Assembly: GCA_038062975.1 (NCBI GenBank)
Contig: JBBTWC010000017.1
Span: 1 to 51,090 of the forward strand
Origin: Patescibacteria group bacterium
GTDB taxonomy: Bacteria; Patescibacteriota; Minisyncoccia; Moranbacterales; UBA1568
Reading direction: 5' to 3'
DNA length: 51,090 nucleotides
Part shown: positions 9,108 through 46,671 of the stretch, piece after piece
Layout of the letters: each line of letters opens with the position of its first letter
Position numbering within the stretch: position 1 is the first letter of the stretch
Translations under genes and position numbers: made by a program
The notes under the pieces: model-generated
Told to the model about the DNA's origin: nothing
Database searches by the model: none
Seen by the model: only the letters and a program-made list of their open reading frames with translations

Positions 9108-11933
9108 TTACGGAAGGTATTTAGCAGTAAAGCTTTTCTTACACGTTTTGAGTTTCAGTGGTGGCCCAGCAAAAACAAGTTCTCCTCCTTTTTCACCACC
9201 TTCAGGTCCAAGTTCCAGTACCCAATCGGAAGAAGCAATGACATCAATATTATGTTCTACCACGAGTACCGTATTTCCCTTGTCTACCAAGGCTTCCAGT
9301 ACTTCCAAGAGCCTGCGCACATCTTCAAAGTGCAAACCAATCGTTGGTTCATCAAGGATATAGAGCGTCTTGCCAGTTGATTTTCTCGCAAGCTCGGTCG
9401 CAAGCTTGATACGTTGAGCTTCACCACCAGAAAGATTCGTTGCACTCTGCCCCAGAACCAAGTATCCAAGACCCACTTCTTCAAGTACTCGAAGCTTCTC
9501 TTCAATCAGTGGTTGATCCAAGAAAAATCTCCGAGCATCGGTTACCGTCATTTGGAGTACCTGAGAAATATTCACTCCACGATACTCAATAGAGAGTGTC
9601 TTCGCATTGTAGCGAGTTCCCTGACAGACTTCACACGGCACATACACATCTGGTAACAGGTACATTTCAATCTTCTTCAGTCCCCCACCCTGACAAGCCT
9701 CGCACCGTCCACCACGCATATTAAAAGAAAAATGACTGGCAGAATATTTGTCACGCTCTGCCTCTGGAGTTTCAGCAAACAAATCACGAATAAGACTAAA
9801 GACACCCGTATAGGTTGCTGCATTAGATCGTGGTGTACGCCCAATCGGATCCTGCGTCACAGTAATCACTTTATCAATATTGGAAAGACCTTCAATTTTC
9901 TTGTGCTCCCCTGGTTCCGCTTTGGCATGATAAAAATGCTTCGAAAGAGCTCGCGAAAGAATATCGTGCACCAAAGATGATTTTCCTGATCCCGAAACAC
10001 CTGAGACAGCAACCAGCATTCCGAGGGGAATTTCTACATCAACGTTTTTCAAATTATGCTCTTTAGCACCTGTAATCTTGATCACTTCACCACTCATCTT
10101 GCGTGCCTTTTTCTTTTCAGAAACAGAACGTTTTCCAGAAAGGTACTGTCCCGTCAAAAGCTTGGACTTCATAAGTTCCGAAGAAGTACCCGCGAAAATA
10201 ACTTCGCCACCTTCCACGCCAGCACCCGGACCCATATCAATAACGTAGTCTGCTTTACGCATGATAGCCACATCGTGTTCTACGATCACGAGCGAATTGT
10301 TTCCAGCTCGCAAATCTTCCAATGCATGAATTAATTTTTCAGTATCACGACTATGCAGTCCTACCGAAGGCTCATCGAGAACATAAATAATACCCGAAAG
10401 ACCAGACTTCATCTGAACAGACAGTCGTATACGTTGAGCCTCTCCTCCCGAAAGCGTATCTGCTCCACGGCAAATCTCCAGATACCCAAGACCTACCTTT
10501 TCCACAGCCTGCAATCGTGTTTCCATTTCTCGAAACAAAGGCTCGATCATTTCACGATCTCCTTTTTTCAAAAGTGTATCACGCAATTTTGGAAGAGCGA
10601 GCAAAAGTTTTTCTACACTCTGAATAACCAAATCATTAATCGAAACATTTCCTACCTTTACCGCTAAACTTTCTGGCTTCAAACGTTTTCCAAGACAGGC
10701 TGGACACACCTGGGTCAGCATATAGGCCTCAATCTCTGCACGCAGGTGCTCAGACTTTGTTTCTTTATACTTGCGTTCCAACAAAGCGATCACTCCTGGG
10801 AAGTCACTACTTTTTTCATCTGTCTTTTGTGACAAGCTCTCATTTCCCTCTCCAAACAAAATAGCATCCAGCTGCTTCTTCGAAAGTTTCTTGATTGGAG
10901 TATCCAACGTAAAGCGCATTTTCTTTCCAAGCTCACGAAGCATCTGCATTGGTCCATTCCCATTGGATCGATCGCTATTCATTTTGCTCCACGGACGAAT
11001 AGCTCCTTCCGCGAGAGCCAGATTTTTATTGGGAATAACCAACACTGGGTCAAACTCAAGTGTCACTCCAAGACCAGAACACTTTTTACAAGCACCCTCT
11101 GGACTATTGAAAGAAAAATGACTTGGTGTCGGCTCTGGGAGACGAATATCGCAGTGTTCGCAGTGATATTCTTCGTTATAATCCCACTCTTCACCACTGC
11201 CATTAATCCGTAACGTGAGCGCTCCTTGTCCAACATGAAATGCGGTCTGCAAAGAATCCAAAATACGCTCTTTATCAGGACGATCTTTAGAAAGCACGAG
11301 GCGATCAACGACTACACCGAGCGTTTCATTTGGTTCATCACTCGCCCCAGAAAGTGCTTCTGCAATTGGTTGAATCTCGCCATTTAAAACAACTCGTGGA
11401 TAGCCCCAAGTGCTGATAAGTGAAAGAGCATCTTTTTCGGTCTTGCCGACTAACTGAGGATGATACGCAACAAACACAAGCGGAGTCTCATCAGGAAGCG
11501 TCAAAATTTCATCCAAGATTTGGCGCACTCCTTTGCGCGAAAGTGTTTCACCGCAATTCGGACAATGTGGAACACCAAGCTTGGCGTACAACACACGCAA
11601 GAAATCGTACACTTCAGTCATGGTGCCCACCGTTGAACGCGGACTACGTGATACGCTTTTCTGATCAATAGAAATAGCCGGGGAAAGATTGTGAATCGCA
11701 TCGACATCCGGCTTATCAAAACCATCAAGAAAATTGCGCGCATACGAAGAAAGCGACTCAACATAGCGCCGATTCGCTTCCGCAAAAAGAGTATCAAAAG
11801 CTAAAGATGATTTTCCTGATCCCGAGAGCCCGGTTATAACGACGAGGGAATTTCGTGGGATATCAACATCCACGTTTTTCAAATTGTTTACTCGTGCACC
11901 CCGAATTTCTATGACCGATTTTTTTTCTGGCAT
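9108..11933 (-). CDS. uvrA: Excinuclease ABC subunit A (full-length type with insertion domain)
   Basis: Motifs seen: [14 protein letters not shown], two Walker A sites ([20 protein letters not shown]), LSGGEAQR signatures, CxxC zinc modules. About 100 aa lie between CKKCSGLG and CPACLGKR. The ATG at MPEKK is preferred over the upstream GTG at 11984. Confidence 0.95.
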
Positions 11934-12036
11934 ACCCCGTAAAGCTCGTAAGAAAAAAGTAAACAGTTGTCTCCCAGCATACACCCTTTTTCAGCGACTG
12001 TAAATACAGAGGTATCTGTGGATAACCCAAGGGGTA

Positions 12037-13966: not shown

Positions 13967-14374
13967 CTAGTGCCGGAGCCTCTTCTTCGGAGGCAGGCTT
14001 TCGGCCGACTCTTTCACTGCCCGCTTATAGGCCGTCTTGACCAACTGGTCACGGGCGTTCTTGCGGTAGGTCTTGAAGGTGATCCGGCCGTTGTGCGCCT
14101 GAGCGGCGGCGAGGTCGGAAAGGAACGACGAGTCCACCGGAAAGACCTTGTGCGGCTTGCCGTAGTTGTCGAGGAGCCGAACACGGTGGTCCGTCTCTTC
14201 GTCATCCTTGGCGGCCGGCAGGTTCTTCTTGATCCACTCGTAGGCGGCATCGCTCGTCCCCTTGACGAACCAGTTGTCGAGCGCCGAGACCAGACTCAGG
14301 TGAGCCCGGGGACGACGATCTTCTTGGCTCGGGCCACGATCACGCACCCGCAGAGCGGAATTTTGTACCTGCAT
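13967..14374 (-). CDS. Orphan hypothetical protein (135 aa), paralog of 14570..14956
   Basis: AAGGGG lies upstream of the ATG. It shares NWFVKGTSDAAYEWIKKNL / AWFVVPQSDAATIWLRSHL and AAAQAHNGRITFKTYRKN / CRAHQAHAEIRFEIFREE with its neighbour. Differences at conserved residues are synonymous (GAT/GAC, GCC/GCT). Confidence 0.6.
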   Translation of the reverse strand: MQVQNSALRVRDRGPSQEDRRPRAHLSLVSALDNWFVKGTSDAAYEWIKKNLPAAKDDEETDHRVRLLDNYGKPHKVFPVDSSFLSDLAAAQAHNGRITFKTYRKNARDQLVKTAYKRAVKESAESLPPKKRLRH

Positions 14375-14569: not shown

Positions 14570-14956
14570 CTACTGGTTGCAGCCGCAGGCCTGCTGGTAG
14601 GACTTCGGAATGATCGCTCCTCCGGGATGTTCTTCCCGAAAGATTTCGAACCGAATTTCTGCGTGAGCCTGATGAGCCCTGCAGAGTTCGGTCATACGCG
14701 AATCCATCAGACGATAGGCCCGATATTCTCCGCCAGCCTTGTCCCTCTTGGTAACCCGGATATCTTCGCCGGGCTTTTCCTTCAGGTGACTACGCAGCCA
14801 AATAGTAGCGGCGTCGCTCTGCGGAACGACGAACCACGCGAGCTCGGGCGCAACCGCGAGCTTGGCCCGTTTCTGCTTAGCCTTGGATCCAGGAGCCCCC
14901 TGGGTGCGAAGCGAAGCAGTGTTTGTACCACCCTTACGCGCAACTTGGAATTTCAT
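14570..14956 (-). CDS. Orphan hypothetical protein (128 aa from MKFQV), paralog of 13967..14374
   Basis: A GAGGG RBS lies 5 nt before the ATG at 14956. The track ORF extends to a TTG at 14977. The protein ends in ...QQACGCNQ. The 10-nt TATTAGAAAT found upstream of its paralog also occurs here. Confidence 0.6.
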   Translation of the reverse strand: MKFQVARKGGTNTASLRTQGAPGSKAKQKRAKLAVAPELAWFVVPQSDAATIWLRSHLKEKPGEDIRVTKRDKAGGEYRAYRLMDSRMTELCRAHQAHAEIRFEIFREEHPGGAIIPKSYQQACGCNQ

Positions 14957-15003
14957 TTTGCCCTCGCTTATTTCCAAGATTTCTAATACGCATTCCGGAT
15001 GGA

Positions 15004-15034: not shown

Positions 15035-15289
15035 CCCGGGTGTTAAGAGCGCCACAGTGCGCGATCATGCGCCAGGCACTCAAAAGGGAAAAGTCTTTCT
15101 TACCTCAGGGTCCCTCGAGTCCTCAGGTAAGCGCGTGCCGTTTTCGACATCGCGAAGAATTGATGGCGAAGATCAGACTTCGATCAATCACCGTGATACC
15201 CATCACAAACCCCTATTCTAAGTTACTCCGAGAAGCCAAACTTCGGCTTCACCCCTATCCTACTCCCAGAGACAAAACTGTCAAACCTC

Positions 15290-16372
15290 TTATTTTCCAA
15301 ACCGACTATGAAAAAAGCTACTCGTACGTTCCATAAAAATTGGCCACTGCGAAGCAAATTCGTGTCCTTCTCCTTGGTACACAAAGTATTCAACATTCTT
15401 TCCTTTAGACTGCAGAAGCTCATAGGTTTCTTGTGACCATTCGATCGGTACATCCTCATCTCGTGTGCCATGATGAATCTGAACCGCTTGATTAATACGA
15501 TCTACATACGCAGTCGCAGAAATTGCGTTCCAGAAATCCGGATTTTCTTCAGGAGCACCGTAGATCCGTCGTATTTGCTCTTCTGTCTCCGGTCGCTCTT
15601 TCATCCAGCGCTCATAGCTGTCCCGGTAATCCATGCTCACAGGCGCATACAACACAAAACCTTTTACCAAATCCGGAAAAGTCACCATAATTGTCTCAGC
15701 AATTCCACCTCCCATAGAGTGTCCCATGATTCCAATATTTTCTTTATCTATATATTCAAGCGAAGAACCTCGAAGAGCATAGATAGCGTTTACAACGTCT
15801 TCTACATATCCGAGCCTCTCTTCGAGAGGGTCTTCATCGGTCTTGGTTGATTGCGCATGATTACGATAGTCGGGATGAAAAACAACGAAACCTTGTTTCG
15901 CAAGATAATCCTGCTCCCTACGCAGCCCTCGGCCGTTGGTATAAATGCTTGTATCAATATGTCCATGAGCAAGAATAAGTACAGGAAACCCTCCCTCTGG
16001 AGGCGTACTTGTCGGCACATTCATAATCCCAGAAAGAGTAAGTTCTCCACCTGTATAGGTAACGTAGTAACGAGTATAGGATGTATTTTTCTCCTGAACC
16101 TCACCAAATACAAGGTCGCGCCCGTCAAACTTCTTTACCGCTAGAAGTCGAAGGGTAAATGACGGAACCTCACCATTCTTCATCGCTCCAGTGATAGTAT
16201 CTTCTGTCTTTTCCGAAACTTCATCCTTCACTGTCTGCTTCCCTATATCTAAGTTTTTATCAAAATTCATCTCACTTTTCGGAGTTTTCTGATCTCGCAT
16301 CAGAAATAATCCAACTGAAAGGAAAACGAAAAGGAACAATACTCCAACAATGATTGTCTGTTGCTTATTCAT
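15290..16372 (-). CDS. Alpha/beta hydrolase, S9/dienelactone-hydrolase-like serine hydrolase with N-terminal anchor
   Basis: Nucleophile elbow GIMGHSMGGG, later HGTRDEDVP and GEGHEF. The N-terminus has a TM/signal segment. Confidence 0.8.
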   Translation of the reverse strand: MNKQQTIIVGVLFLFVFLSVGLFLMRDQKTPKSEMNFDKNLDIGKQTVKDEVSEKTEDTITGAMKNGEVPSFTLRLLAVKKFDGRDLVFGEVQEKNTSYTRYYVTYTGGELTLSGIMNVPTSTPPEGGFPVLILAHGHIDTSIYTNGRGLRREQDYLAKQGFVVFHPDYRNHAQSTKTDEDPLEERLGYVEDVVNAIYALRGSSLEYIDKENIGIMGHSMGGGIAETIMVTFPDLVKGFVLYAPVSMDYRDSYERWMKERPETEEQIRRIYGAPEENPDFWNAISATAYVDRINQAVQIHHGTRDEDVPIEWSQETYELLQSKGKNVEYFVYQGEGHEFASQWPIFMERTSSFFHSRFGK

Positions 16373-16393
16373 ATATCCTTTATACAGGAATAT

Positions 16394-17366: not shown

Positions 17367-17406
17367 AAAGTAACATAATTTCTCGATCGAGAAATTATGT
17401 TACTTT
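17367..17406. repeat. Perfect 40-bp palindrome
   Basis: AAAGTAACATAATTTCTCGA|TCGAGAAATTATGTTACTTT. I checked it base by base around the centre at 17386/17387. On the + strand it is followed by CTTTTTT. Confidence 0.95.
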
Positions 17407-17410
17407 CTTT

Positions 17411-17455
17411 TTTAGGTAAAGAAAAGAGCGGGCCTGATGTTTCAGGTCACCGCTC
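17411..17455 (-). terminator. Rho-independent terminator of 17505..17909
   Basis: Nested stem GAGCGG / CCGCTC with inner CCTGA / TCAGG (17426-17455). On the minus strand it is followed by TTTTCTTT. Confidence 0.6.
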
Positions 17456-17504
17456 TCGCAGGTTTGTTGATTCGGCGCATTCGCGCTCTTTTCAAAGAAG
17501 GGCT

Positions 17505-17909
17505 TTACGCCTTGTCGTGGTACAAGACGTGATTGGAATACACAGCCGGGAAAAAGAAGATCTCGTGCTCCCAGATCAGCGAATCTTCGGCGGTGCAGTC
17601 CTGACTCGTAAAGCCATAACGGCCGATCAGGATGAGGAAGTCTTCGAGGTTCAACCTCTCTACATCACCAGACGGCATTCTCGCGAACTGATCGGTCACG
17701 AAAACAGTCGGCGGGTCGCCTTGAGCGATACTCCGCGCGAGCACATCTTCGAACTCGACCAGATTGGTGCAGAAATCGATTTGCGTGTCTGGAAGCCTTT
17801 CATCGACCTCAACCAGGAAATGCATCCTGGCCTCTCCATAGCAACCGCGACCGGTATGCCAATGCGGGAGACCAAACAAGAACAACATACGTACCCTCTT
17901 CGTCATCAA
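17505..17909 (-). CDS. Orphan hypothetical protein (134 aa), member A of a 3-member paralog family
   Basis: A GAGGGAAGG RBS lies upstream. It shares RMLFLFGLPHW and GDPPTVFVTDQF with 21008..21397 and 21431..21907. The sequence is GC-rich (32/60 G+C at 17641-17700). Confidence 0.6.
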   Translation of the reverse strand: MMTKRVRMLFLFGLPHWHTGRGCYGEARMHFLVEVDERLPDTQIDFCTNLVEFEDVLARSIAQGDPPTVFVTDQFARMPSGDVERLNLEDFLILIGRYGFTSQDCTAEDSLIWEHEIFFFPAVYSNHVLYHDKA

Positions 17910-17983
17910 GTACCTTCCCTCTTCTATATTTTGTCAACGAAACTAGGCTCTTATGGTGACACGAAATGATTAAAAAGTCAATA

Positions 17984-18013
17984 CAAAAAACACCTCCCTC
18001 GAAAGGAAGGTGT
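17984..18013 (-). terminator. Rho-independent terminator of the cold-shock gene
   Basis: Minus strand reads ACACCTTCC, tttcga, GGGAGGTGT, then TTTTTTG. Confidence 0.7.
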
Positions 18014-18031
18014 TTCTTAAAAGACGAGAGA

Positions 18032-18232
18032 CTACGCGCGTGAAACGTTTGTAGCTGCAGGTCCTTTGTCACCGTTGACAACTTCGAAAGTGACTGCGTC
18101 ACCTTGCTGAAGTTCATCAAACTGGACGCCGTTCAATTCTGAAGAATGAAAGAAGAGATCCTTCTCCTCACCCTCACGAGAAATGAAACCAAAGTGCTTC
18201 TCGCGGACGAGAGTCTTGATTGTTCCGTTCAT
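18032..18232 (-). CDS. cspA: Cold-shock domain protein
   Basis: 66 aa, with RNP1-like KHFGFI and RNP2-like LFFHS. Confidence 0.9.
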   Translation of the reverse strand: MNGTIKTLVREKHFGFISREGEEKDLFFHSSELNGVQFDELQQGDAVTFEVVNGDKGPAATNVSRA

Positions 18233-18330
18233 AATGAATGTGTGCTTGTCTAATTACTTTGCGAAACTCGACTACTTTTCCGCGTTACCAACATTCGTAG
18301 TATAAACTACTTTCCCGATTTCTCCTAATT

Positions 18331-19842
18331 TTAAGCCTTTCTCTCCTCTCCTAACCCCAGTTTCTTGATCCGAGAGCTAATAGCCCCTCGCTTTCGGCCA
18401 AAGACCGCCATAAGACTCTTTACTGGTGTTTTCGTCCGATACAGTCGAATCAGTTCCATATCTTCTGCTTCAGTCCACTTTTGATAGGCTTTTGGCGCAA
18501 CAGGATCAGCTCCTTTTTTCTCAGTACCGCCAGAAATAATGATAAAGTTGCGGAAAAGCTCAGCCAGTCTCTCTTTGGGCATCGCCTCATAGCGTGCCTC
18601 GGCATGAAGCGAGAGATTTCGGAACTCTTCATCTTTTACTGATACTTCTGGATGTACCTCCAAGGCACGCTGATTCATTCCCAAAAGATGTACACCAGAT
18701 AAACTCCGCACCCGAGAAAGTGCTACATATCCTTGGCCGTATTCAAACGCTTGCGACAAATCAATAACTGCGGCATCCAAACTCACCCCCTGACTCTTGT
18801 GAATAGTCATCGCCCACGCCAATCGCAGTGGCAACTGAGTAACCTTGGCTACCACTTCATCGCCTTCAGCGATCGTCCACTCCATAGGCTCAGCGGTAAT
18901 ACGCTTCCCACTCTTTGTTTCAACAATAGGATACTTTCGTCCTTCTTCAAATCCAACTACTACTCCAAGGGTTCCATTTACAAAGCCCTCGCTCGGATTA
19001 TTTTTGGTAAACATAACCGCTGCACCTTCCTTCAGCTCCAGCGCCTCAGGTGAAAGGCATCCTCGTTTCAACGCATCCGTCAAAACCTCTGGTCCACGAC
19101 GAGCCATGACAAAGGAACGCTGTTTCCCAGGAAGTCGCTTCAGTTCAGTTGCATTGATAGCATCGACATCTACATTCTTTGGAAACAACCTCGTCGTATC
19201 ATCCGGGAGCTCTTCTTTGGTTACCAAGCGCTCGCGAATTGTTTCAAAATGATCTTCATCACAAGCGCTCTTACGGATAGCAGTCAGCACTTCCAAGAAT
19301 CGACTATCATCTTGGCGATACTGTTCAGAAAGATAGCAAACGGTCGGCGAAAGAGACTGCCAGGCTTCAGAATCAAAAGCAAACTGTACCGGTCGACCCT
19401 GAGAGGCTACCGGCGGAAGCTGAAAAAAGTCTCCCACCAAAATAACCTGTAGACCTCCAAAAGGTAACGTTGCTTTTCGTACTTTCCGACAAACCCGTTC
19501 CACGAGTGAAAGCACGTTGCCATCAAGCATCGATATTTCGTCGATAATAAGCACTTTCGCTTTTTTGATACGTTTTGCCACAAAAGAATTTTCTCCCAAA
19601 TGCTTCAAATCATCTTCACTCAGCTCGCTCGCAATACCAATACCACTCCACGAATGAATCGTCATGCCCCCGATATGTGTCGCCGCAATACCCGTGGATG
19701 CAGTCACCGCAAAATCAATCTTCTGTTCACGAAGATATTCAGTATAACGATTAATAGTATGTGTCTTTCCAGAACCAGCTTCACCGGTCAGAAAAACACT
19801 GGCACCCGTTTTCAATATAACGAGCGCTTGATCTTGAGTCAT
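18331..19842 (-). CDS. PIF1/RecD-like SF1B DNA helicase with C-terminal HTH tail
   Basis: Walker A is GEAGSGKTH and Walker B is LIIDEISML. Also seen: GDFFQLPPV, TIHKSQG, and a basic helical C-terminus. Confidence 0.85.
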   Translation of the reverse strand: MTQDQALVILKTGASVFLTGEAGSGKTHTINRYTEYLREQKIDFAVTASTGIAATHIGGMTIHSWSGIGIASELSEDDLKHLGENSFVAKRIKKAKVLIIDEISMLDGNVLSLVERVCRKVRKATLPFGGLQVILVGDFFQLPPVASQGRPVQFAFDSEAWQSLSPTVCYLSEQYRQDDSRFLEVLTAIRKSACDEDHFETIRERLVTKEELPDDTTRLFPKNVDVDAINATELKRLPGKQRSFVMARRGPEVLTDALKRGCLSPEALELKEGAAVMFTKNNPSEGFVNGTLGVVVGFEEGRKYPIVETKSGKRITAEPMEWTIAEGDEVVAKVTQLPLRLAWAMTIHKSQGVSLDAAVIDLSQAFEYGQGYVALSRVRSLSGVHLLGMNQRALEVHPEVSVKDEEFRNLSLHAEARYEAMPKERLAELFRNFIIISGGTEKKGADPVAPKAYQKWTEAEDMELIRLYRTKTPVKSLMAVFGRKRGAISSRIKKLGLGEERKA

Positions 19843-19854
19843 TGCGGTCTATGT

Positions 19855-20097
19855 CTATGAATGTATGAGAGCGAGTTTTTGAGCTCGCGTGAGACGCTTT
19901 ATCCTCGCCTCTTCCTTAGAAGCCAGGGAACGCGTCTGATACTCTCTTGAGTATACCAAAACCGCTGGCGTCCGTCCCCGGACGTATTTTGCTCCTAAGG
20001 CAGATGCGTTATGCTCCCCCACGCGTCTCTCAAGATCAGTGGTAATTCCCGTATACAACGTATCATCAGCACAACGGAGAATATAGACAAAATACAT
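19855..20097 (-). CDS. Stand-alone GIY-YIG nuclease-domain protein (YhbQ-like)
   Basis: MYFVYILRCADDTLYTGITTDLERRVGEHN. Confidence 0.85.
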   Translation of the reverse strand: MYFVYILRCADDTLYTGITTDLERRVGEHNASALGAKYVRGRTPAVLVYSREYQTRSLASKEEARIKRLTRAQKLALIHS

Positions 20098-20102
20098 AGA
20101 TT

Positions 20103-20363
20103 CTATTTATCTTTCCAATTCCACCACTTCAACTTCTCTGGGTCGTGCTTCTTGTGTTCCACAAAGTACACAGCACCACGGAAGACGTACAGCATACAAC
20201 GATCAATATGTTGCCCGCGCAATTTGCACAGCTTATCATACAACTTCTCAGGATTCTTTCCCTTCAGACAGCTTGGTCGATCAATCCCCAGGTCTCGCAA
20301 ATCCTGCGCGATACTTTTTCCAACACCCGGGATACTTTGTAATCCTCGTTCTTCTTTTTTCAT
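20103..20363 (-). CDS. Small helix-hairpin-helix DNA-binding protein
   Basis: LQSIPGVGKSIAQDLRDLGI is an HhH motif. The protein is 86 aa. Confidence 0.65.
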   Translation of the reverse strand: MKKEERGLQSIPGVGKSIAQDLRDLGIDRPSCLKGKNPEKLYDKLCKLRGQHIDRCMLYVFRGAVYFVEHKKHDPEKLKWWNWKDK

Positions 20364-20364
20364 A

Positions 20365-20664
20365 CTACAGAATGCGAAACGTTACACTTACTACATCGCC
20401 ATCAAATATTCCCTCAGCTTTGCGTACAGCAGCCTTCAGAGCAATCAAATACTTTTTCTCTTTAGTCGGAAACAGTGTTGTCTTCCAGGTAGTTTTCCTA
20501 ACCGTTACTTCTACTGGGACATATCGAAACCCTACTGTCTTTACCACATTCTTTCGTACCTCCTCTGCCATCTTAGAATCCACATACACAAAATACCAGC
20601 TTGCCGGCTCTACCGTATATTTCCATACCTTTCCCCTGAGTTTGAAAATCTTCTTTACAGCCAT
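20365..20664 (-). CDS. DUF1905-like protein
   Basis: The start is taken at MAVKK. WYFVYVDSKMAEEV...VEVTVRKTTWKTTLFP resembles the DUF1905 beta-barrel family. Confidence 0.55.
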   Translation of the reverse strand: MAVKKIFKLRGKVWKYTVEPASWYFVYVDSKMAEEVRKNVVKTVGFRYVPVEVTVRKTTWKTTLFPTKEKKYLIALKAAVRKAEGIFDGDVVSVTFRIL

Positions 20665-20671
20665 ACTCGTA

Positions 20672-20890
20672 TTATAAAATTTCAAATACCTTCTTTTTCC
20701 CAGTCGCACCAGAACGTAGTACTATCTGCGACTTCGGAATTTTCAAAAACCGAGAAAGAATTTTGATGAGCGCAATATTTGCTTTCCCCTCTACTGGAGA
20801 TGCCTTTACGGAAACTACAAAATGCGTCTCGTCTATCTTTTGCACAGCTTCTTCGCGTGCGTTCGTCTTAGCGGTTACGAAAATTCTCAT
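20672..20890 (-). CDS. DUF167 / YggU-like protein
   Basis: VSVKASPVEGKANIALIKILSRFLKIPKSQIVLRSGATGKKKVFEI matches the conserved YggU core. Confidence 0.75.
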   Translation of the reverse strand: MRIFVTAKTNAREEAVQKIDETHFVVSVKASPVEGKANIALIKILSRFLKIPKSQIVLRSGATGKKKVFEIL

Positions 20891-20941
20891 ATATTTCACA
20901 CAAAGTTCCTAAGAAAAGCATAGCACAGCTCGTTTCTGGGT

Positions 20942-20972
20942 AAAAAAAGACGACCACTTAGAGGCGGGTCGT
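20942..20972 (-). terminator. Rho-independent terminator of the 21431..21008 gene pair
   Basis: Minus strand reads ACGACC, an 11-nt loop, GGTCGT, then CTTTTTTT. Confidence 0.6.
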
Positions 20973-21007
20973 AAAAGCTTCAGTTGAAGCGGCCTTGGGA
21001 AAATAGT

Positions 21008-21397
21008 TCACGAGTAGAGTGGGTCGAGCGGATGCCGGACTTTATATTTGTAAACGGTGTAACCAGAAAGCGTGTCCAGACCGATCGGAAGAACTTCTTG
21101 TTCTATAAACTCAAATCCGTATCCGCCATGCATCATCCGCTTGAAGTCATCCGAAAAGATCGGCTGAACCTCGCCTTCTCGCCACGCATGGCCATCGGAA
21201 ACGAAGACTTGCGGAGGTTCTCCGAGACAAATCATTTGCGTAAGCATGTTCATAAAGCCAAAAAACTCAGGAGTGGCCTTAACATCTGATCCGTGAGGCA
21301 GGCTTTGGTGCATGACGCTCGCAAAAGCCTCTCTCGCCTCGTCACTCCTCCACAACGGCAGGCCGAGGAGGCAAAAAGCGCGAACAGGGATTATCAT
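21008..21397 (-). CDS. Orphan hypothetical protein (129 aa), paralog family member B
   Basis: A strong RBS, AAGGAGGAGGTGAG, lies directly upstream. Family motifs are RAFCLLGLPLW and GEPPQVFVSDGH. Confidence 0.65.
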   Translation of the reverse strand: MIIPVRAFCLLGLPLWRSDEAREAFASVMHQSLPHGSDVKATPEFFGFMNMLTQMICLGEPPQVFVSDGHAWREGEVQPIFSDDFKRMMHGGYGFEFIEQEVLPIGLDTLSGYTVYKYKVRHPLDPLYS

Positions 21398-21430
21398 CTC
21401 ACCTCCTCCTTTTCTTTGGTGCGTGTGAAG

Positions 21431-21907
21431 TTAGACTCTCTGCCCAGTCAGCCCACGCCGAAGGCGCGAGAAAAATCCAGGCCCTGTTGGTTTGCAGTAC
21501 GCCGTGTTCGGAACAACGGCAAAGTAGCCAAGTGATCCAAACATGAAAAAGTCGGGAAAGGACCTCTCTCCGGGTTGCACGGCGATTTGCATTTCCTGAA
21601 GCGCCAGAATCTCCGTCTCTTCGAAAATGAGCTCGAGAGTCTTGCGCGACAGGATACTCGAATAGTCGTAGTCAAACAGCACAAAGTCCGTCACGAAAAA
21701 TTTCGGGATAATGCCTTGGGTAATATCTTCCGCTAGGACCGAGTCGATCGCCGGCATCTGCCGAACGAAAACCGGGGCGATACTTTGCCCGAGGTGCTTC
21801 TCCAGAAATCCACGGAGTTGAATCCGTAGCTCCCGGCTCTGCCATGCATCATCCCCCAAAAGGCAGATGACGCGGAGTGGCGCTTGGCCACTTTGTACCG
21901 TTTCCAT
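21431..21907 (-). CDS. Orphan hypothetical protein (158 aa), paralog family member C
   Basis: GGAGAAAGG lies upstream. Family motifs are RVICLLGDDAW and GIIPKFFVTDFV. It lies 33 nt upstream of member B on the same strand. Confidence 0.6.
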   Translation of the reverse strand: METVQSGQAPLRVICLLGDDAWQSRELRIQLRGFLEKHLGQSIAPVFVRQMPAIDSVLAEDITQGIIPKFFVTDFVLFDYDYSSILSRKTLELIFEETEILALQEMQIAVQPGERSFPDFFMFGSLGYFAVVPNTAYCKPTGPGFFSRLRRGLTGQRV

Positions 21908-21980
21908 CTGCCTTTCTCCATCTCGGGGTTGTTAAGCAACAATATATCAAGATGTCACAAAAAAAGACCCTCGTCAAAGC

Positions 21981-22262
21981 CTAAGCCAAAAAGAGGGAAA
22001 TCACGTACAAAGTGGCTATATTTTGAAGAATCACCACGGGAATACCAACAATGAAATACCATTTCCGTGTCTTGTGCCGAAAGGCCAGCATCCCCAGATA
22101 CACCCCAATACTTCCAAACATCACCGCCATGAAAAAAAGCATTCCTTCGGATATCCGCTCCGCTCCCGCTACCCGTGACCGAGACTTATCCCACAACATT
22201 ACCAAAAACGTTGCAAGATTAATTGCAAGAAAAATAGCTAGTAAAATAATCTGGATATTCAT
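21981..22262 (-). CDS. DUF1294 membrane protein
   Basis: The start is taken at MNIQII. LWDKSRSRVAGAERISEGMLFFMAVMFGSIGVYLGMLAFRHKTRKWYF is the DUF1294 core. Confidence 0.8.
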   Translation of the reverse strand: MNIQIILLAIFLAINLATFLVMLWDKSRSRVAGAERISEGMLFFMAVMFGSIGVYLGMLAFRHKTRKWYFIVGIPVVILQNIATLYVISLFLA

Positions 22263-24641: not shown

Positions 24642-25778
24642 TTACAGTTCTCCAGCAAAAGCTTTTTGGAGAACGGACTTCTTGAGCTCTTCTAAATCTA
24701 CCAATTTTTGTTTGTAGATAGCTTCTAGATTTTTAGTTTCAGCGGATAAAGCGTCCAGCTTTTTGACAATGACTTTTTGATCAGGCACTGACGGAAAAGA
24801 AATTCTAATACTTCTGATGATAGGCATATTCAGACCACGCCTATCATTACCCGCATCTCCAGTTAATTTCCTTATCTCTTGATAACGACTATTTAGAGCT
24901 TGATAGAGATATTCTGGTAGCAGCTCTTCTATTTTTTTAGGATAAATACTAACTAAAGACTGATTACAGGTAGCTTTCACTCTTAACAAAGCTACTGATC
25001 CTCTTGTTTTTCCTTGACCATTAAGAGCGATTAAAACAGAATTAATCGGAAGAAATTTAGCATTAGAACTTTCATATCCCTCTTTTGTAATTCTCCCTTC
25101 ACAATCAAATATCTCTTTCTTGTGAATATCTCCAGAAACAAGCCATTTGATCTTTCCATTTTGAAAATATTCCAAATGACCCCTACTAGGAGTACCTCCT
25201 GTCATAAGATCACACACTTCACCTATAGACTTAGAACTCCAATCTTTTTTTGAATCCAGAAAAATACTTTGTGCATACGACTCAAAAAGCTCGCGAGAAT
25301 TTTTTATTTGCTGTTCAGTAATTCTCTTCAACTCTTCAATCTGAGCAAACTTCTCATCCAAAATCTTTACGGTCCTTTTTTGTTCTGCAAGTAGTGGAAT
25401 TGGAACTTGAATCTCTTTCAACAATCTATAATGTCTTGCATAACCCAACTGCTTAAAAGTGACACTCTGTAGAAAGTAGAAGAAAAATTTCGAATCAATA
25501 CCATCTTTTGTTTGTAATATCTTTACTCCATCTGCACCTAAAACAAAATCAAAATCTATATACTTAAGGATCTGCGTGTGATCACCGAAAATTATCACTG
25601 GTTTTTTCACCAAGAATAAGTCTCTCTTATCATTCCAATAGCCATTTATAGTCCCTATCTCCTGTGAGACTACTGGGAATTCTCCCGATTCCAAAAAGTT
25701 CTTACGCTGAATCTTATTCGTGTAAGTTAGTTTAGTCAAACAGTCCTCAAAATCTCTTAATTGCCAGCTTGTTCTCAT
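24642..25778 (-). CDS. hsdS: Type I R-M specificity subunit (two target-recognition domains)
   Basis: Two repeated TRD halves are separated by helical spacers (LAEQKRTVKILDEKFAQIEEL and the C-terminal KKLDALSAETKNLEAIYKQKLVDLEELKKSVLQKAF). Confidence 0.88.
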   Translation of the reverse strand: MRTSWQLRDFEDCLTKLTYTNKIQRKNFLESGEFPVVSQEIGTINGYWNDKRDLFLVKKPVIIFGDHTQILKYIDFDFVLGADGVKILQTKDGIDSKFFFYFLQSVTFKQLGYARHYRLLKEIQVPIPLLAEQKRTVKILDEKFAQIEELKRITEQQIKNSRELFESYAQSIFLDSKKDWSSKSIGEVCDLMTGGTPSRGHLEYFQNGKIKWLVSGDIHKKEIFDCEGRITKEGYESSNAKFLPINSVLIALNGQGKTRGSVALLRVKATCNQSLVSIYPKKIEELLPEYLYQALNSRYQEIRKLTGDAGNDRRGLNMPIIRSIRISFPSVPDQKVIVKKLDALSAETKNLEAIYKQKLVDLEELKKSVLQKAFAGEL

Positions 25779-26839
25779 ATTTTAGATGAATCACTCCCCT
25801 GATCTGTTTCTTTGTCTTCGATAAAGCTACTCTTCTCTTCAAGCGCTAAAATTTCCTGATCGAGATTAATACGATCTTCTTCTTTGGGCCAGATATAGTC
25901 ACCCACCTGTTTCCATATTTCTATGTCAAACTTTTCACTTTTATCTTGAAGATGGTTAAGATAAAATTTATTTATATCGGAGTCACTTGCAATCCAATTA
26001 ACTTGTTGATTATTAAGCAACGCTGTAACTAAGCCAGCTAATTGTTCATCAGAAAAACTAGCATATTTATTTAGTCTACTGATTATCCCGTGGGTTGATA
26101 AAAAGTTTTCAGAATTAATTAAATCTTCTATTAAACTATTTTTCTCTTCTTCTATTTTAAATTCAATTTTAATATCATGTTCGGTAAAAAAACTTGTTAA
26201 TCTATGATAAAAATAAATTTCACTAGTCTTTTTTTTATGCCACTCATCAACAAGATAGTCTTTCAATTCATCTTTATTTATTGCACTTGAGTAATCACCG
26301 TCAGTACTCACTATAATAAAATCACCTTCTTCTGTAACTTCAGCCAATAAACTCTCCCAATTTATTTCATCACCGAAGCTACGGTCTTTCTTCCCTGGAG
26401 GACGACCTAATCTATGCCTCTCGACAGCTAAGTGCAGGTATTTATCTGATTCAATTAAAATACTTTTTTCTTTTAATGTTTCAATAACTATATCCGCCTT
26501 AAGCTGCTTACTTTGAATATCATTATTAATTGTTTTACTAAGTTTTGATTTCAACCCATTAAGTACCTTCTGAGCCCTATTGATATCAGCATATTCTTTA
26601 TAACTTTTACAAAAAACTGGCATAGGTACTGCTGATGTGTATTCAGTAAATTTTTTATAAGCCTGACCAAGCCTATTGTCACGATTTTTCATGACTTCGT
26701 GTTGAACCTGAGTCGTAAGAAACAATTTAATGTCACCAGAATCAATCAAGTCTGCTAACTTATTTAATTGATCTAAATCTTCATCATGAAAATCATAAAA
26801 ATTCAGAAGTATATTTGAATCTAAAAAGAGTAATTTCAT
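25775..26839 (-). CDS. PIN-like (DUF4935-like) predicted nuclease embedded in the type I R-M operon
   Basis: ATGA overlaps occur at both ends (25775-25778 with hsdS, 26836-26839 with hsdM). The N-terminal acidic pattern is FLDSN, QVQHEV, FGDEINWE, VSTDGD. The PIN call is motif-level only. Confidence 0.6.
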   Translation of the reverse strand: MKLLFLDSNILLNFYDFHDEDLDQLNKLADLIDSGDIKLFLTTQVQHEVMKNRDNRLGQAYKKFTEYTSAVPMPVFCKSYKEYADINRAQKVLNGLKSKLSKTINNDIQSKQLKADIVIETLKEKSILIESDKYLHLAVERHRLGRPPGKKDRSFGDEINWESLLAEVTEEGDFIIVSTDGDYSSAINKDELKDYLVDEWHKKKTSEIYFYHRLTSFFTEHDIKIEFKIEEEKNSLIEDLINSENFLSTHGIISRLNKYASFSDEQLAGLVTALLNNQQVNWIASDSDINKFYLNHLQDKSEKFDIEIWKQVGDYIWPKEEDRINLDQEILALEEKSSFIEDKETDQGSDSSKI

Positions 26840-29942: not shown

Positions 29943-30045
29943 ACGGTAATTGACTCACTTCCTCCTCTATTATAGACTGTAGCTGCATGTGCCGTACACT
30001 CCCTTGCTGAAAATGCCCTTGGGAGTTCTTTTTTTCAAAACCCCT

Positions 30046-30576
30046 ATGACCCGAAATAGAAGCGAAAAAACACAGGAAGAAAAGGCAGAAAGCCTGGAAC
30101 TTTTGGCCCTGACAGCTACCAAGTATATCGGTTCACTTCCCTCCCTCATTGCTCATTCCCTCTTTTTCGTCGGTATTTTTTCCTTGTCTCTCTTTGGGTT
30201 TGGGTTTGATCAGATCCTCCTTATACTCACTACGGTCGTCTCACTCGAGGCTATCTATCTTTCCATCTTTATTCAGATGACCGTCAATCACCAGAGTAAA
30301 CAGATTGCTGAAGTCAGTGAAGATGTGGAAGATATCGTAGAAGACATTGAAGGGATTTCCGAAGACATGGAAGAAATTTCCAAAGACATTGATGATATCC
30401 AAGAAGACGTTGAAGAAATCAGCGATGATGTGGAAGAGCTGGGAGAAGAGATTGAAAAAGATGATCAAGAAGATGCCAAAGAACACGCTTTGGAAGTTGA
30501 AAAGATTGAAAAGATCGAGGTCCTCTTAAACACCCTCCTGACCGAAATCAAAGACATCAAAGAAAAGAAGGGTTAA
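30046..30576 (+). CDS. DUF1003-like membrane protein with acidic heptad-repeat tail
   Basis: Two TM helices end in SLEAIYLSIFIQMTVNHQ. Then comes EDVEDIVEDIEGISEDMEEISKDIDDIQEDVEEISDDVEELGEEIE. The start is uncertain (GTG at 29989 or ATG at 30046). Confidence 0.6.
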   Translation: MTRNRSEKTQEEKAESLELLALTATKYIGSLPSLIAHSLFFVGIFSLSLFGFGFDQILLILTTVVSLEAIYLSIFIQMTVNHQSKQIAEVSEDVEDIVEDIEGISEDMEEISKDIDDIQEDVEEISDDVEELGEEIEKDDQEDAKEHALEVEKIEKIEVLLNTLLTEIKDIKEKKG

Positions 30577-32266: not shown

Positions 32267-34861
32267 TTATTTCTTTTTCGGTGCCAGGACTTTGCGAAGA
32301 TAGAAGCCTGTATGAGAACCAGCTTTTCTCGCCACTTCTTCTGGTGTACCAGTAGCGACAACTTTGCCACCGCCGATTCCCCCTTCAGGTCCGATATCGA
32401 TAATATAGTCTGCGGATTTAATAAGATCCATATTGTGCTCAATAACCAATACAGTATTTCCCTTGGCTACCAGACGCTCAAGAATCTCGATAAGTTTTTT
32501 CACGTCTTCATAATGCAGACCGATCGTTGGTTCATCGAGAAGATAGATGGTGCGCTCGACGTGCTGACGGTACAGTTCTGAAGAAATCTTTACACGCTGC
32601 GCTTCTCCACCAGACAGTGTCGTGGCTGATTGCCCTAGCTTCAAATATCCAAGTCCTACTTCATTGAGTGTTTTCAAACGATCGGCGATAGCCGGAATTT
32701 CAAAGAAGAAAGCATACGCCTCTTCAATTGTCATCTCGAGCACTTCATAAATATTTTTGTGCTTGTAACGCACTTCCAATGTTTCTTTAGTAAAGCGCTT
32801 TCCATCACACACATCACACGGCACATACACCGTTGGTAAAAAGTGCATCTCTACGGCAATAAATCCATTTCCTTCACAAGTTTCACAACGTCCACCTGGG
32901 CGGTTGAATGAGAAACGCCCTGCTTTCCATCCGCGTACACGAGCTTCTTCGGATGCTGCAAACAAATCACGCACGTGCGTCCAGGCACCAGTATAGGTTG
33001 CTGGATTAGAACGAGGCGTGCGACCAATAGGGCTTTGGTCAATAAGGACTACTCGGGAAAGATACTCAGACCCCGTAAAACTCTTACAGTTGAAGACTTT
33101 GTTTGATTTGTACCGGCGATCAAAACGAGCCTGAAGGTTCTTGTGAATAATCTCGTACATCAAACTCGACTTTCCTGATCCAGAAACTCCAGTAATCACA
33201 TTGAACCGACCGAGAGGAATCTCGACATTCATGTCTTGAATATTGAACAAGTTTCCGCCACGGATTTTGATTTCTCCTTTTTCTTTGGCGCGACGCTTCT
33301 CGGGAATTGGTACTGATTCTTCTCCACGCAGGTACGCGAGTGTCAGTGATCCTGATTTATTCTTCGGTGCCGTCAGGAGATCATCTAAATAGCCGGAAAC
33401 AACAATCTCTCCTCCGTGCACACCGGCTCCTGGTCCAATATCAACGATATAGTCAGAAGCGTAGATGGTGTCTTCGTCGTGCTCAACAATAATAATAGTA
33501 TTCCCCAAACTTCGCAGTGCCTGAAGCGTTTCGATAAGGCGCTCGTTGTCACGCTGATGAAGGCCAATGGTTGGTTCATCCAGCACATACAATGCTCCTA
33601 CCAATTGAGAACCAAGTTGGCTCGCCAAACGAATACGCTGAGCCTCTCCACCAGAAAGCGTGTTGGCACGACGATCCAAGGTAAGATAATTTAAACCAAC
33701 ATTTAAGAGGAAGCGTAAACGACTCCCAATTTCACGCAGAACCACGGAGGCAATTTGACGTTCTCGTTCCGTAAGCTCAAGTCCATCCAAAAATTCAAGA
33801 GTAGCGTCCGTCATCATTTTAGTGACTTCTACAATATTCTTGCCACCAATCTTGATATGTAACGCTTCTTCACGTAAACGAGAGCCGTGACACACTTCGC
33901 AAGGTTCATCTCCAAAAAAATGTTTTGTCCCAAGTCCATTACAAGCTTCACAGGCTCCGTACGGAGAGTTGAATGAGAAAAGACGAGGCTCAACTTCTGG
34001 ATATGAAAATCCATCATACGGACAAGAAAACTTTGAAGACATAACAAATTTTTCTTTGCCCATGTGCACCTGAACCAACCCTTCGCTTTCGAGGATAGCT
34101 CGTTCCACTGCTTCGGCCAGACGCTCTTCTGATGTCTGGGGAAATTTTTCAAATTCTTGCAATGGTATTTCATCGACAATTAAATCAATATCATGCTTTT
34201 TGTTTTTTGAAAGCACTACCTGCTCACGAAGACTTTTCCGTGCACCATCGAGAAGAATTTCTGAATATCCACGACCAAGCGCATTGTACAAAAGCTGATA
34301 GTATTCCCCTTTGCGACCACGCACCACTGGTGCGGTAATCAAGAGCACCGCCTTCTTATCTTTTTCTTTGGACAACGTTTCGTGCACACGCTCTGATACT
34401 GTCTCCAGCATTTCTTCTGGAGAAAGTTTTTTGATTTCTCGCTCACAGATAAGACAATGTGGACGTCCTAAGCGCGCATAAAAAACACGTAAGTAATCAT
34501 AAATTTCCGTTACCGTTGCCACGGTAGAACGCGGATTGCGACTGGCGGATTTTTGATCAATAGAAATAGCTGGGGAAAGACCAATAATCTCATCCACATC
34601 CGGCTTTTGCATGGTATTTAAAAACTGACGAGCGTAGGCCGAAAGAGACTCAACATAGCGACGCTGTCCTTCGGCAAAAATAGTATCAAACGCAAGTGAT
34701 GACTTCCCTGAGCCAGAAAGACCCGTAAAGACAACCATCTTATTCCGTGGCATTTCCACGGTCACATTTTTGAGATTGTGGGTACGAGCACCTTTAACAA
34801 TGATGAGCTCGCTTGGCTCAATCTTATGTGAAGCATTTTTTCGTTCAGTTTTTTGTGCCAT
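32267..34861 (-). CDS. UvrA paralog lacking the insertion domain
   Basis: Motifs seen: [32 protein letters not shown], two LSGGEAQR. Only about 12 aa lie between CEACNGLG and CEVCHGSR, versus about 100 aa in the copy at 9108..11933. Confidence 0.9.
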
Positions 34862-46071: not shown

Positions 46072-46671
46072 TTAGTGCGCCAGTTGGTTCCGGCGACGGA
46101 AAATGAATTGGGTGTCCGACGGGAACTCGTGGTGCGCGTCGAGAAGCGTGCCACACAGCCAACGATCGCCCTGGAAGCACGAAATGCGAGGCATCACGTA
46201 CTTCCCGTTTGAAAGAAGGAGCGGCTGCGTTGCCACGATGAAGTTTTCCCCTTCCGGTTGGTCTTCATAGTTCTGACGCAGGATCGGCGACGCATCCCCC
46301 GGGCAGAACTCGAACGAAAACTTATCCCAGGCTCGATCGAAAATCTGATCGATCCGAGCCGTGAAGACAAATCCGAGATCCCACACGGATACCCTTTCGA
46401 AGCTGGCCACCTCTCCTTCCGGGGAGATGACAAATTCCGAATGATGAAACATGTGGCGTGCCCAGTAATTGACACGGTTACCCGAGCGAAGAAGCACGGG
46501 TTCGAACTGGCTCGGCTCTTGGATAAGGCCAAGCTCAGCGGACTTCCATGACCTTTGCACAAGTTGGAGCGAAGGACGCAAAGCGCGTTCCCCTTCGCGG
46601 TTATGGAACAAAGAACTGGTTGGTTCCCGAGATTGTTCAAGCGGGAGCCCTTCGAGCATGGATTGCGCCAT
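46072..46671 (-). CDS. Orphan hypothetical protein (199 aa) in GC-rich islet 4
   Basis: It has a GAGGAG RBS, its own consensus promoter and its own terminator. G+C is 34/60 at 46261-46320. I recognised no motif. Confidence 0.6.
   Translation of the reverse strand: MAQSMLEGLPLEQSREPTSSLFHNREGERALRPSLQLVQRSWKSAELGLIQEPSQFEPVLLRSGNRVNYWARHMFHHSEFVISPEGEVASFERVSVWDLGFVFTARIDQIFDRAWDKFSFEFCPGDASPILRQNYEDQPEGENFIVATQPLLLSNGKYVMPRISCFQGDRWLCGTLLDAHHEFPSDTQFIFRRRNQLAH

Follow-up and report, generated by a model that had tools for sequence, protein, structure and literature searches.

What could small, duplicated, GC-rich genes without a recognizable domain be doing in the genome of a Patescibacteria group bacterium? 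The question is raised by a 51,090-nt stretch of DNA from such an organism (Minisyncoccia, Moranbacterales, UBA1568; assembly GCA_038062975.1, contig JBBTWC010000017.1, positions 1 to 51,090), referred to here as the window, in which an earlier note drawn up from the sequence alone had pointed to three open reading frames (ORFs), named A, B and C below, as a three-member family of orphan proteins. Judging from their substitution patterns and mutual similarity, A, B and C are real, translated paralogs belonging to a very narrow family of soluble, mildly acidic proteins of ~130-160 amino acids (aa), which we call the A-D family to include a fourth paralog, D. Our results further show that every gene or gene pair forms a self-contained cassette composed of a homologous upstream region, a ribosome-binding site (RBS), a coding sequence (CDS) and a terminator, and that the cassettes occupy two fixed chromosomal sites, one after the cold-shock protein gene csp and the other between genes for DUF1294 and DUF167 proteins. 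Comparison of close groundwater strains shows that these cassettes are lost or gained between short direct repeats, or give way to very divergent, mosaic alleles between conserved flanks. Their role is a more tentative matter, to which we return after the evidence.

Coding status and paralogy

All three ORFs that had been reported are present, on the minus strand (Table 1). Translation of A most likely starts at the ATG at position 17906, one codon inside the ORF that opens at TTG 17909; the internal Met start assigned by a metagenome gene caller to its ortholog P0004 (106 aa) was rejected, as it would delete the conserved first strand of the protein. Pairwise BLASTP comparisons relate A to B (E=1e-10, 33% identity across 101 aa), B to C (E=5e-6) and A to C (E=3e-4). 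The two sequence blocks described as common to the three proteins are in register on the alignment and the pairwise similarity is significant, with R, L and G invariant in block 1 and G, P and D invariant in block 2. A family hidden Markov model (HMM) searched against the six-frame translation of the window recovers A, B and C exactly and nothing further. The paralogy proposed in the earlier note is thereby borne out; its count of three is valid for the window only, as a related strain carries the fourth paralog D, similar to B (BLASTP E=1e-6) and C (8e-4).

Ratios of nonsynonymous to synonymous substitution rates (dN/dS) were obtained by the Nei-Gojobori method for window genes compared with their orthologs on Hainich groundwater metagenome contigs. 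A and its ortholog at locus L004 differ by 13 synonymous and 2 nonsynonymous changes (dN/dS 0.04), and the ratio is 0.20 for B and, in the comparison with L001, 0.14 for C. The existence of homologs under purifying selection, on which the earlier note had made its proposal depend, is thus supported by dN/dS values of 0.04-0.20 among orthologs. No transmembrane segment is predicted (maximum Kyte-Doolittle 19-residue mean of 1.13), and the isoelectric points range from 4.9 to 5.2.

These comparisons also bear on whether A, B and C might be artefacts, either chance ORFs in GC-rich non-coding DNA or shadows of true genes on the other strand. Long spurious ORFs do arise in GC-rich DNA, and a longer antisense ORF on the plus strand (17397..17969) overlaps A. 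However, this antisense frame displays 2 synonymous and 13 nonsynonymous changes, the reverse of the A frame, and therefore the minus-strand frames are the coding ones; the substitutions in B follow the same trend, and they are fitted far better by the claimed frame than by the others. This substitution pattern, together with the significant likeness of the paralogs, the confident AlphaFold2 models obtained for two of them and the correct placement of RBSs and terminators, refutes the artefact explanation, the probability of which we regard as negligible.

Table 1. Coordinates of the family genes, their expression signals and the csp anchor within the window
Feature	Position	Strand	Remarks
Paralog A CDS	17505..17906	(-)	133 aa from ATG; listed ORF opens one codon earlier, TTG 17909
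Paralog B CDS	21008..21397	(-)	129 aa; second gene of the C-B pair
Paralog C CDS	21431..21907	(-)	158 aa; first gene of the C-B pair
Upstream region of cassette A	17907..17981	(-)	TTGACTTTTT at 17972-17981 (-35-like, also indel junction); GTTTCGTTGACAA at 17931-17943; RBS AGAGGGAAGG
Upstream region of the C-B pair	21908..21990	(-)	TTGAC; GTTGCTTAACAAC; RBS GGAGAAAGG
Terminator of cassette A and right-hand conserved flank of the site	17418..17457	(-)	Intrinsic; hairpin at ~17425-17457, then T-run; 87% identity to L005 sequence 3′ of P0010
Terminator-like hairpin after B	20941..20972	(-)	Hairpin at 20949-20972 plus T-run
csp terminator, left boundary of the cassette site	17984..18019	(-)	-20.4 kcal/mol, z=-5.6
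Cold-shock protein gene csp (CSD), conserved upstream anchor of the first cassette site	18032..18232	(-)	Pfam CSD, E=6e-24

Cassettes at two chromosomal sites

The arrangement of csp followed by family members was found in the window and at loci L004, L005 and L006. Among near-identical strains, the content of this first site is A alone, D followed by A, or P0010 followed by P0009. At L004, D (158 aa) lies between the csp terminator and A, directly upstream of A, and its cassette constitutes a 634-bp difference from the window that is bounded by two copies of TTGACTTTTT, one of which the window keeps (Table 1). L005 and the window are 98.2% identical from the end of the helicase gene through csp to its terminator, and 87% identical in the sequence immediately past the terminator of A. 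Between these flanks, L005 carries P0010, which has 29% protein identity to A and no DNA similarity, and then the paralog P0009. At L006, the flanks of which are 83% identical to those of the window, csp is followed by P0014 and then by another paralog.

At the second site, alleles are replaced between conserved flanks. L002 and the window are 97-100% identical in the flanks, including 100% across the Cdd1 and GIY-YIG genes, and 65-88% identical in the interior of C and B. The upstream region of the C-B pair is itself 97% identical to that of L002, and identity falls to 65-70% in the CDS just downstream. The synonymous divergence (dS) reaches 1.39 for C and 0.61 for B, compared to values of 0.24-0.34 in flanking genes. 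At L007, a C resembling that of the window (13 synonymous and 7 nonsynonymous changes) is found together with yet another B allele, in which 24/81 residues differ; the B alleles thus number at least three (window, L001 and L007). Divergence in B is concentrated in residues 22-81 (dS 0.5-1.8, dN/dS 0.15-0.28); residues 1-21 have a dN of 0, and the 3′ end of the gene is nearly identical among alleles. The suggestion that these genes are accessory modules is directly supported by such presence/absence and allele replacement between near-identical strains.

Gene-sized differences were also observed elsewhere in the window. An S9-peptidase/alpha/beta-hydrolase gene (15290..16372; region 15286..16392) is absent from L004, where its flanks are separated by only ~7 bp, and represents another gene-sized indel between close strains. 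In the type I restriction-modification (R-M) operon, a PIN_12-domain gene (25775..26839) lies between hsdM and hsdS; the segment at 24642..26839 is AT-rich (GC content of 0.31-0.35) and has no DNA similarity to the matching segment of L001, which contains a 213-aa ORF and a different hsdS between hsdM and hsdR flanks that are 88-89% identical in DNA sequence.

Upstream regions and terminators

Six cassettes (A, C, D, P0010, P0014 and P0009) have upstream regions that align and follow a common layout, in which a T-run and TTGAC are followed by a spacer, GTT(T/G)C..TT.ACAA, an RBS and ATG. The RBS strings quoted in the earlier note for A, B and C are all present, that of B being GGAGGAGGTGAG, 33 nt past the stop codon of C. 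From its sequence, the upstream region of A may act as a promoter; a sigma-70 consensus scan called no promoter for any of the cassettes. The terminators proposed after A and B were recovered as well, both hairpins being able to fold and both being followed by T-runs. The hairpin after A reaches -20.8 kcal/mol (z=-5.0) and the one after B -8.8 kcal/mol (z=-2.5), weaker than the terminators of A and csp.

Two sequence elements were observed beside these signals. The element GTT(T/G)C(n)TT(A/G/T)ACAA is found past the promoter-like TTGAC and ahead of the RBS in six cassettes (17931..17943 and 21930..21945 in the window; L005 and L006) whose coding regions have diverged past DNA similarity, and may be an operator or a 5′ untranslated region element. 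A window-wide regulon signal was considered for the upstream motif and rejected, as neither GTTKCNTTNACAA (4 matches versus 2.7 expected) nor TTGACTTTTT (14 matches versus 10.7 expected) is enriched across the window; because of this lack of enrichment, support for the motif comes solely from the alignment of the cassette upstream regions. A perfect palindrome with an 18-bp stem, AAAGTAACATAATTTCTC GATC GAGAAATTATGTTACTTT, is located at 17367..17406, just 3′ of the A terminator, and is kept in L004. This palindrome could be a bidirectional terminator or a protein-binding site.

Distribution of the family

The family, new to curated libraries, has a very narrow distribution. Close orthologs alone came up in word-indexed searches of 5.8 billion clustered proteins, and an exhaustive HMMER scan of 1.84 billion representative proteins added two true distant members, P0009 (E=6e-6) and P0010 (E=5e-5); P0014 is a further member that came from a later protein search. 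The remaining HMMER candidates were rejected as repeat or composition artefacts, P0007, P0008, P0011 and P0012 being giant D/T/S-rich repeat proteins and P0013 a PPR-like repeat protein. Locus scans that covered GTDB species genomes, JGI metagenomes and IMG/VR yielded no confirmed locus.

The earlier note recognized no domain in these proteins, in agreement with searches of Pfam, NCBIfam, PADLOC, PHROGs and a PDB sequence profile, none of which gave a credible match for the family. For Pfam, this is the case at E<=0.1 and, when all 8 members are considered, at E<=10. The match to a known housekeeping family that could have overturned the note was not found in the family libraries. As regards known anti-phage defence, A, B, C and D have no PADLOC match at E<=1, and no TIR structure is among the top Foldseek matches. 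Literature searches returned nothing on the A-D family.

Predicted fold and conserved residues

A Rossmann-like alpha/beta fold is predicted with confidence for two of the paralogs. The best AlphaFold2 model of B, obtained from a 7-sequence alignment, has a predicted local distance difference test score (pLDDT) of 86.8 and a predicted template modelling score (pTM) of 0.81, the other four models scoring 59-77 in pLDDT; for A, a 10-sequence alignment yielded a pLDDT of 81.4, with all five models between 74 and 81. Both proteins are modelled with the same order of elements, beta1-alpha1-beta2-alpha2-beta3 followed by a hairpin, alpha3 and three more strands. Foldseek searches of PDB with the A and B models and of BFVD with the B model returned nothing at E <= 1e-3. 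The nearest neighbours, all weak, are class I S-adenosylmethionine (SAM) methyltransferases, DHFR and lobes of periplasmic binding proteins, with a query-normalised template modelling score (TM) of at most 0.46. The guess of a flavodoxin/receiver-like alpha/beta fold put forward in the earlier note agrees with the AlphaFold2 models in its alpha/beta part and fails as to receiver membership.

The invariant or near-invariant residues of the family (A numbering) are R6, C9, L10, G12 and W16, in beta1 and just after it, together with P66, which precedes beta3, and D72, which ends it. They belong to the motifs R..CL[LF]G...W, at the start and end of beta1, and P..FV.D, before and at the end of beta3. 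The differences between B alleles map to one face of alpha1 (residues 22, 23, 26, 27, 30 and 31) and one face of alpha2 (residues 46, 49, 50, 53 and 54), the hydrophobic positions being fixed. This helical periodicity of the variable residues provides an independent fit to the AlphaFold2 model.

Base composition

Our analysis agrees with the observation that A, B and C are GC-richer than their neighbours. Their GC contents are 0.53, 0.51 and 0.54, respectively, compared to 0.44 for the window, and the 32/60 G+C counted by hand at 17641-17700 in the earlier note is exact. The excess resides almost wholly at third codon positions, where the GC content (GC3) is 0.67 for A, 0.55 for B and 0.62 for C versus a mean of 0.43 across ORFs of >=150 aa, with both G and C raised. 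High GC3 is common to all family members in all backgrounds sampled (0.52-0.79). The description of these genes as compositionally foreign, if taken to mean recent horizontal transfer, does not hold, given that GC3 is high in every member and lineage sampled and that the csp-side cassette site is kept in a relative with 83% flank identity.

Other GC-rich orphan genes were observed in the window. A pair of paralogs of 135 aa each (13967..14374 and 14570..14977, both on the minus strand; mutual BLASTP E=6e-10) has GC contents of 0.62 and 0.57 and GC3 values of 0.79 and 0.62. Each gene of this pair has its own promoter-like and terminator-like signals, the second gene has a dN/dS of 0.19 relative to its L004 ortholog, and no match to Pfam, PADLOC, PHROGs or NCBIfam was found for either. 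Kinship of the pair with the A-D family was rejected (hhalign probability of 0.3%). Likewise rejected as kin (hhalign probability <1%) was ORF 46072..46671 on the minus strand, a putative gene of 199 aa with a GC content of 0.56, a GC3 of 0.64 and no family match.

Possible role of the cassettes

In genomes as small and streamlined as those of Patescibacteria, duplicated genes that persist at fixed sites in the form of several very old alleles are unlikely to be idle. We propose that the conserved upstream regions and gene ends would be the anchors for homologous or illegitimate recombination by which old alleles are shuffled. The C-terminal edge of the sheet is the probable location of the invariant Gly and Asp, which would form a putative ligand- or partner-binding pocket there, and the exposed faces of alpha1 and alpha2 would constitute an allele-specific surface. 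The most likely role of such proteins would be strain-specific recognition in genetic conflict, as an immunity- or sensor-type protein that may neutralize or detect a variable partner, whether this belongs to a competitor, a phage or the host cell. Taken in full, from recombining cassettes through the pocket and the allele-specific helix faces to an immunity- or sensor-type part in genetic conflict, this is a tentative reading to which we would grant somewhat less than an even chance.

Several observations weigh against it. No toxin, nuclease-effector, integrase, transposase or phage gene adjoins either site, the neighbours being csp, PIF1 helicase, GIY-YIG, Cdd1, DUF1905, DUF167 and DUF1294 genes, with a type I R-M system beyond DUF1294. 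PADLOC and PHROGs contain no matches for the family. Even the variable segment, in which dS is saturated, has a dN/dS of 0.15-0.28, well under 1, which indicates old alleles rather than ongoing positive selection. Exposed helix faces always evolve fastest, and for this reason the periodic pattern of allelic differences backs the fold model and not a specific interface. Moreover, all known relatives are few in number and sit on short metagenome contigs.

Other explanations account for part of the same evidence. The family could consist of lineage-specific housekeeping or stress proteins tied to csp, that is, small nucleotide- or cofactor-binding Rossmann-like proteins, possibly heterodimers of tandem paralogs, in which divergence results from neutral drift under weak constraint and recombination reshuffles the outcome. 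This explanation accords with the place directly downstream of csp being kept in four backgrounds, one of them with 83% flank identity, with the strong purifying selection on A (dN/dS of 0.04), with tandem pairs being the rule, with weak Foldseek matches that are all nucleotide- or cofactor-binding Rossmann-like enzymes, and with the invariant Gly after beta1 and the invariant Asp ending beta3. However, a strong csp terminator and a separate upstream region stand between csp and the cassette and make their co-transcription unlikely, the second site (C-B) is without csp, and no GxGxG or other cofactor motif is found. It is also unusual for housekeeping genes that copy number is one or two in near-identical strains and that 29%-identical alleles replace each other. 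We consider this csp-linked role somewhat unlikely. Recent horizontal cargo from a GC-richer donor, such as remnants of a mobile element or prophage carrying anti-restriction or anti-defence genes, is improbable in our view. Such an origin would fit the GC3 of 0.55-0.67 compared to ~0.43 for core genes, the location of C-B one gene away from hsdR, the acidic nature of the proteins and the difference in content between strains. Yet no integrase, transposase or phage gene is nearby and nothing is found in IMG/VR or PHROGs, the exhaustive search revealed no donor lineage, and the A site is not beside any R-M system. Furthermore, all relatives use the same two sites and GC3 is in excess in every lineage and allele, up to 0.79, which points away from recent import and to a long-standing property, for instance GC-biased conversion associated with recombination or a codon regime of its own.

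A further alternative follows from the flavodoxin/receiver-like guess, according to which the A-D proteins would be degenerate (pseudo-)receiver or flavodoxin-like domains. The predicted fold does open with beta-alpha-beta-alpha-beta, the invariant Asp ends beta3 as in receivers, and C has an Asp-Asp after beta1. Against this, hhalign with CheY, Spo0F, PhoB and NtrC (receiver sequences entered by hand) gave a probability of 4.8% and an alignment out of register, none of the 8 members matches Response_reg at E<=10, and neither receivers nor flavodoxins appear in the top 50 Foldseek PDB matches of either model. Only three helices plus a hairpin are predicted, compared to the (beta/alpha)5 architecture of receivers, and the Asp-Asp is confined to C-type members, being absent from A, B and D. 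Among receiver residues, only the Asp after beta3 is invariant, with no conserved Thr/Ser or Lys column in the family alignment. We therefore hold this assignment to be very improbable.

The genetic-conflict reading can also be given a more specific form, in which the cassettes would be a Patescibacteria-specific, allele-diverse recognition module. Interchangeable promoter-to-terminator cassettes would encode small Rossmann-like proteins with an active Gly/Asp pocket and a hypervariable alpha1/alpha2 surface that confers strain specificity for a variable partner, for example a factor of the host cell, a phage protein or a toxin of a competitor, balancing selection would keep the old alleles, and homologous recombination would exchange them and may also drive the high GC3 through GC-biased conversion. 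In this detailed form we deem the proposal unlikely; if true, ultra-small episymbiotic bacteria would possess a system for conflict or host interaction that has not been described before. More generally, loci of this kind are good places to look for the molecules by which individual strains interact with hosts, phages or competitors. The family provides a testable entry point, being composed of small, soluble proteins with two confident models and a handful of invariant residues, few enough for simple mutagenesis, for which a natural allele series is already available in public groundwater metagenomes. With its persistent GC3 excess, such a recombining locus may also be informative on GC-biased gene conversion in bacteria.

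Other features of the window

Two large paralogous genes on the minus strand (9108..11984 and 32267..34861, coding for 958 and 864 aa) have in common many DNA segments that are 60-80% identical and contain internally duplicated ATPase-like motifs; they look like two UvrA-type ABC ATPase paralogs. A tandem repeat with a 21-nt period (30305..30456) lies within an acidic ORF on the plus strand (29989..30576, isoelectric point of 4.2) and encodes E/D-rich heptad-like repeats.

Comparison with known systems

CheY-like receivers resemble the A-D proteins in their size of ~130 aa, in their beta-alpha-beta-alpha-beta start and in the Asp that ends beta3, whereas the A-D family fails the sequence, profile and fold tests for receivers. 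The best Foldseek neighbours of both models are class I SAM methyltransferases and other Rossmann-like folds (NTM1, the Plu4890 O-methyltransferase, TrmK and DHFR), with E values of 4e-3 to 1e-2, query-normalised TM of 0.40-0.46 and root-mean-square deviations of 7-10 Å. The alternating beta/alpha core and the conserved Gly after beta1 are found in both groups; unlike the methyltransferases, the A-D family lacks GxGxG, the Gly of CL[LF]G being the sole invariant one and not followed by others. Methyltransferase HMMs do not match the family members, and a length of 129-158 aa looks short for a full methyltransferase domain.

With respect to systems that generate diversity, a retroelement-type mechanism would leave paired repeats. 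No repeat of >=30 nt is paired with A, B or C, with the exception of one 33-nt stretch of 76% identity between B and C, which is chance-like and lies out of register, and no reverse transcriptase is among the annotated neighbours. In contrast to the short C-terminal variable region of diversity-generating retroelements, the divergence of A-D genes spans the whole central part of the gene. Integron cassettes are promoterless and go with an IntI integrase and attC sites. The A-D cassettes carry their own upstream regions and T-run terminators, and no integrase is among the genes annotated within ~10 kb.

Parallels are also found in two other systems. Polyimmunity or orphan-immunity arrays of polymorphic toxin systems, as they are generally understood, also comprise small soluble cytoplasmic proteins encoded by tandem divergent paralogs, vary in copy number among close strains and display highly divergent alleles between conserved flanks; tandem divergent paralogs with strain-variable content are what we observed for the A-D family. 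These arrays differ in that A-D sites have no adjacent toxin or secretion-system gene, involve one family instead of several, match no Pfam immunity family and provide each cassette with its own upstream region and terminator. Allelic replacement of hsdS in type I R-M systems, of which the window provides an example in its comparison with L001, likewise places a divergent core between conserved flanks, as seen at the C-B and A sites, but involves a known function and known domain shuffling, neither of which is known for the A-D family. While the protein family is itself undescribed, strain-variable and recombination-shuffled accessory loci are thus of an already known kind.

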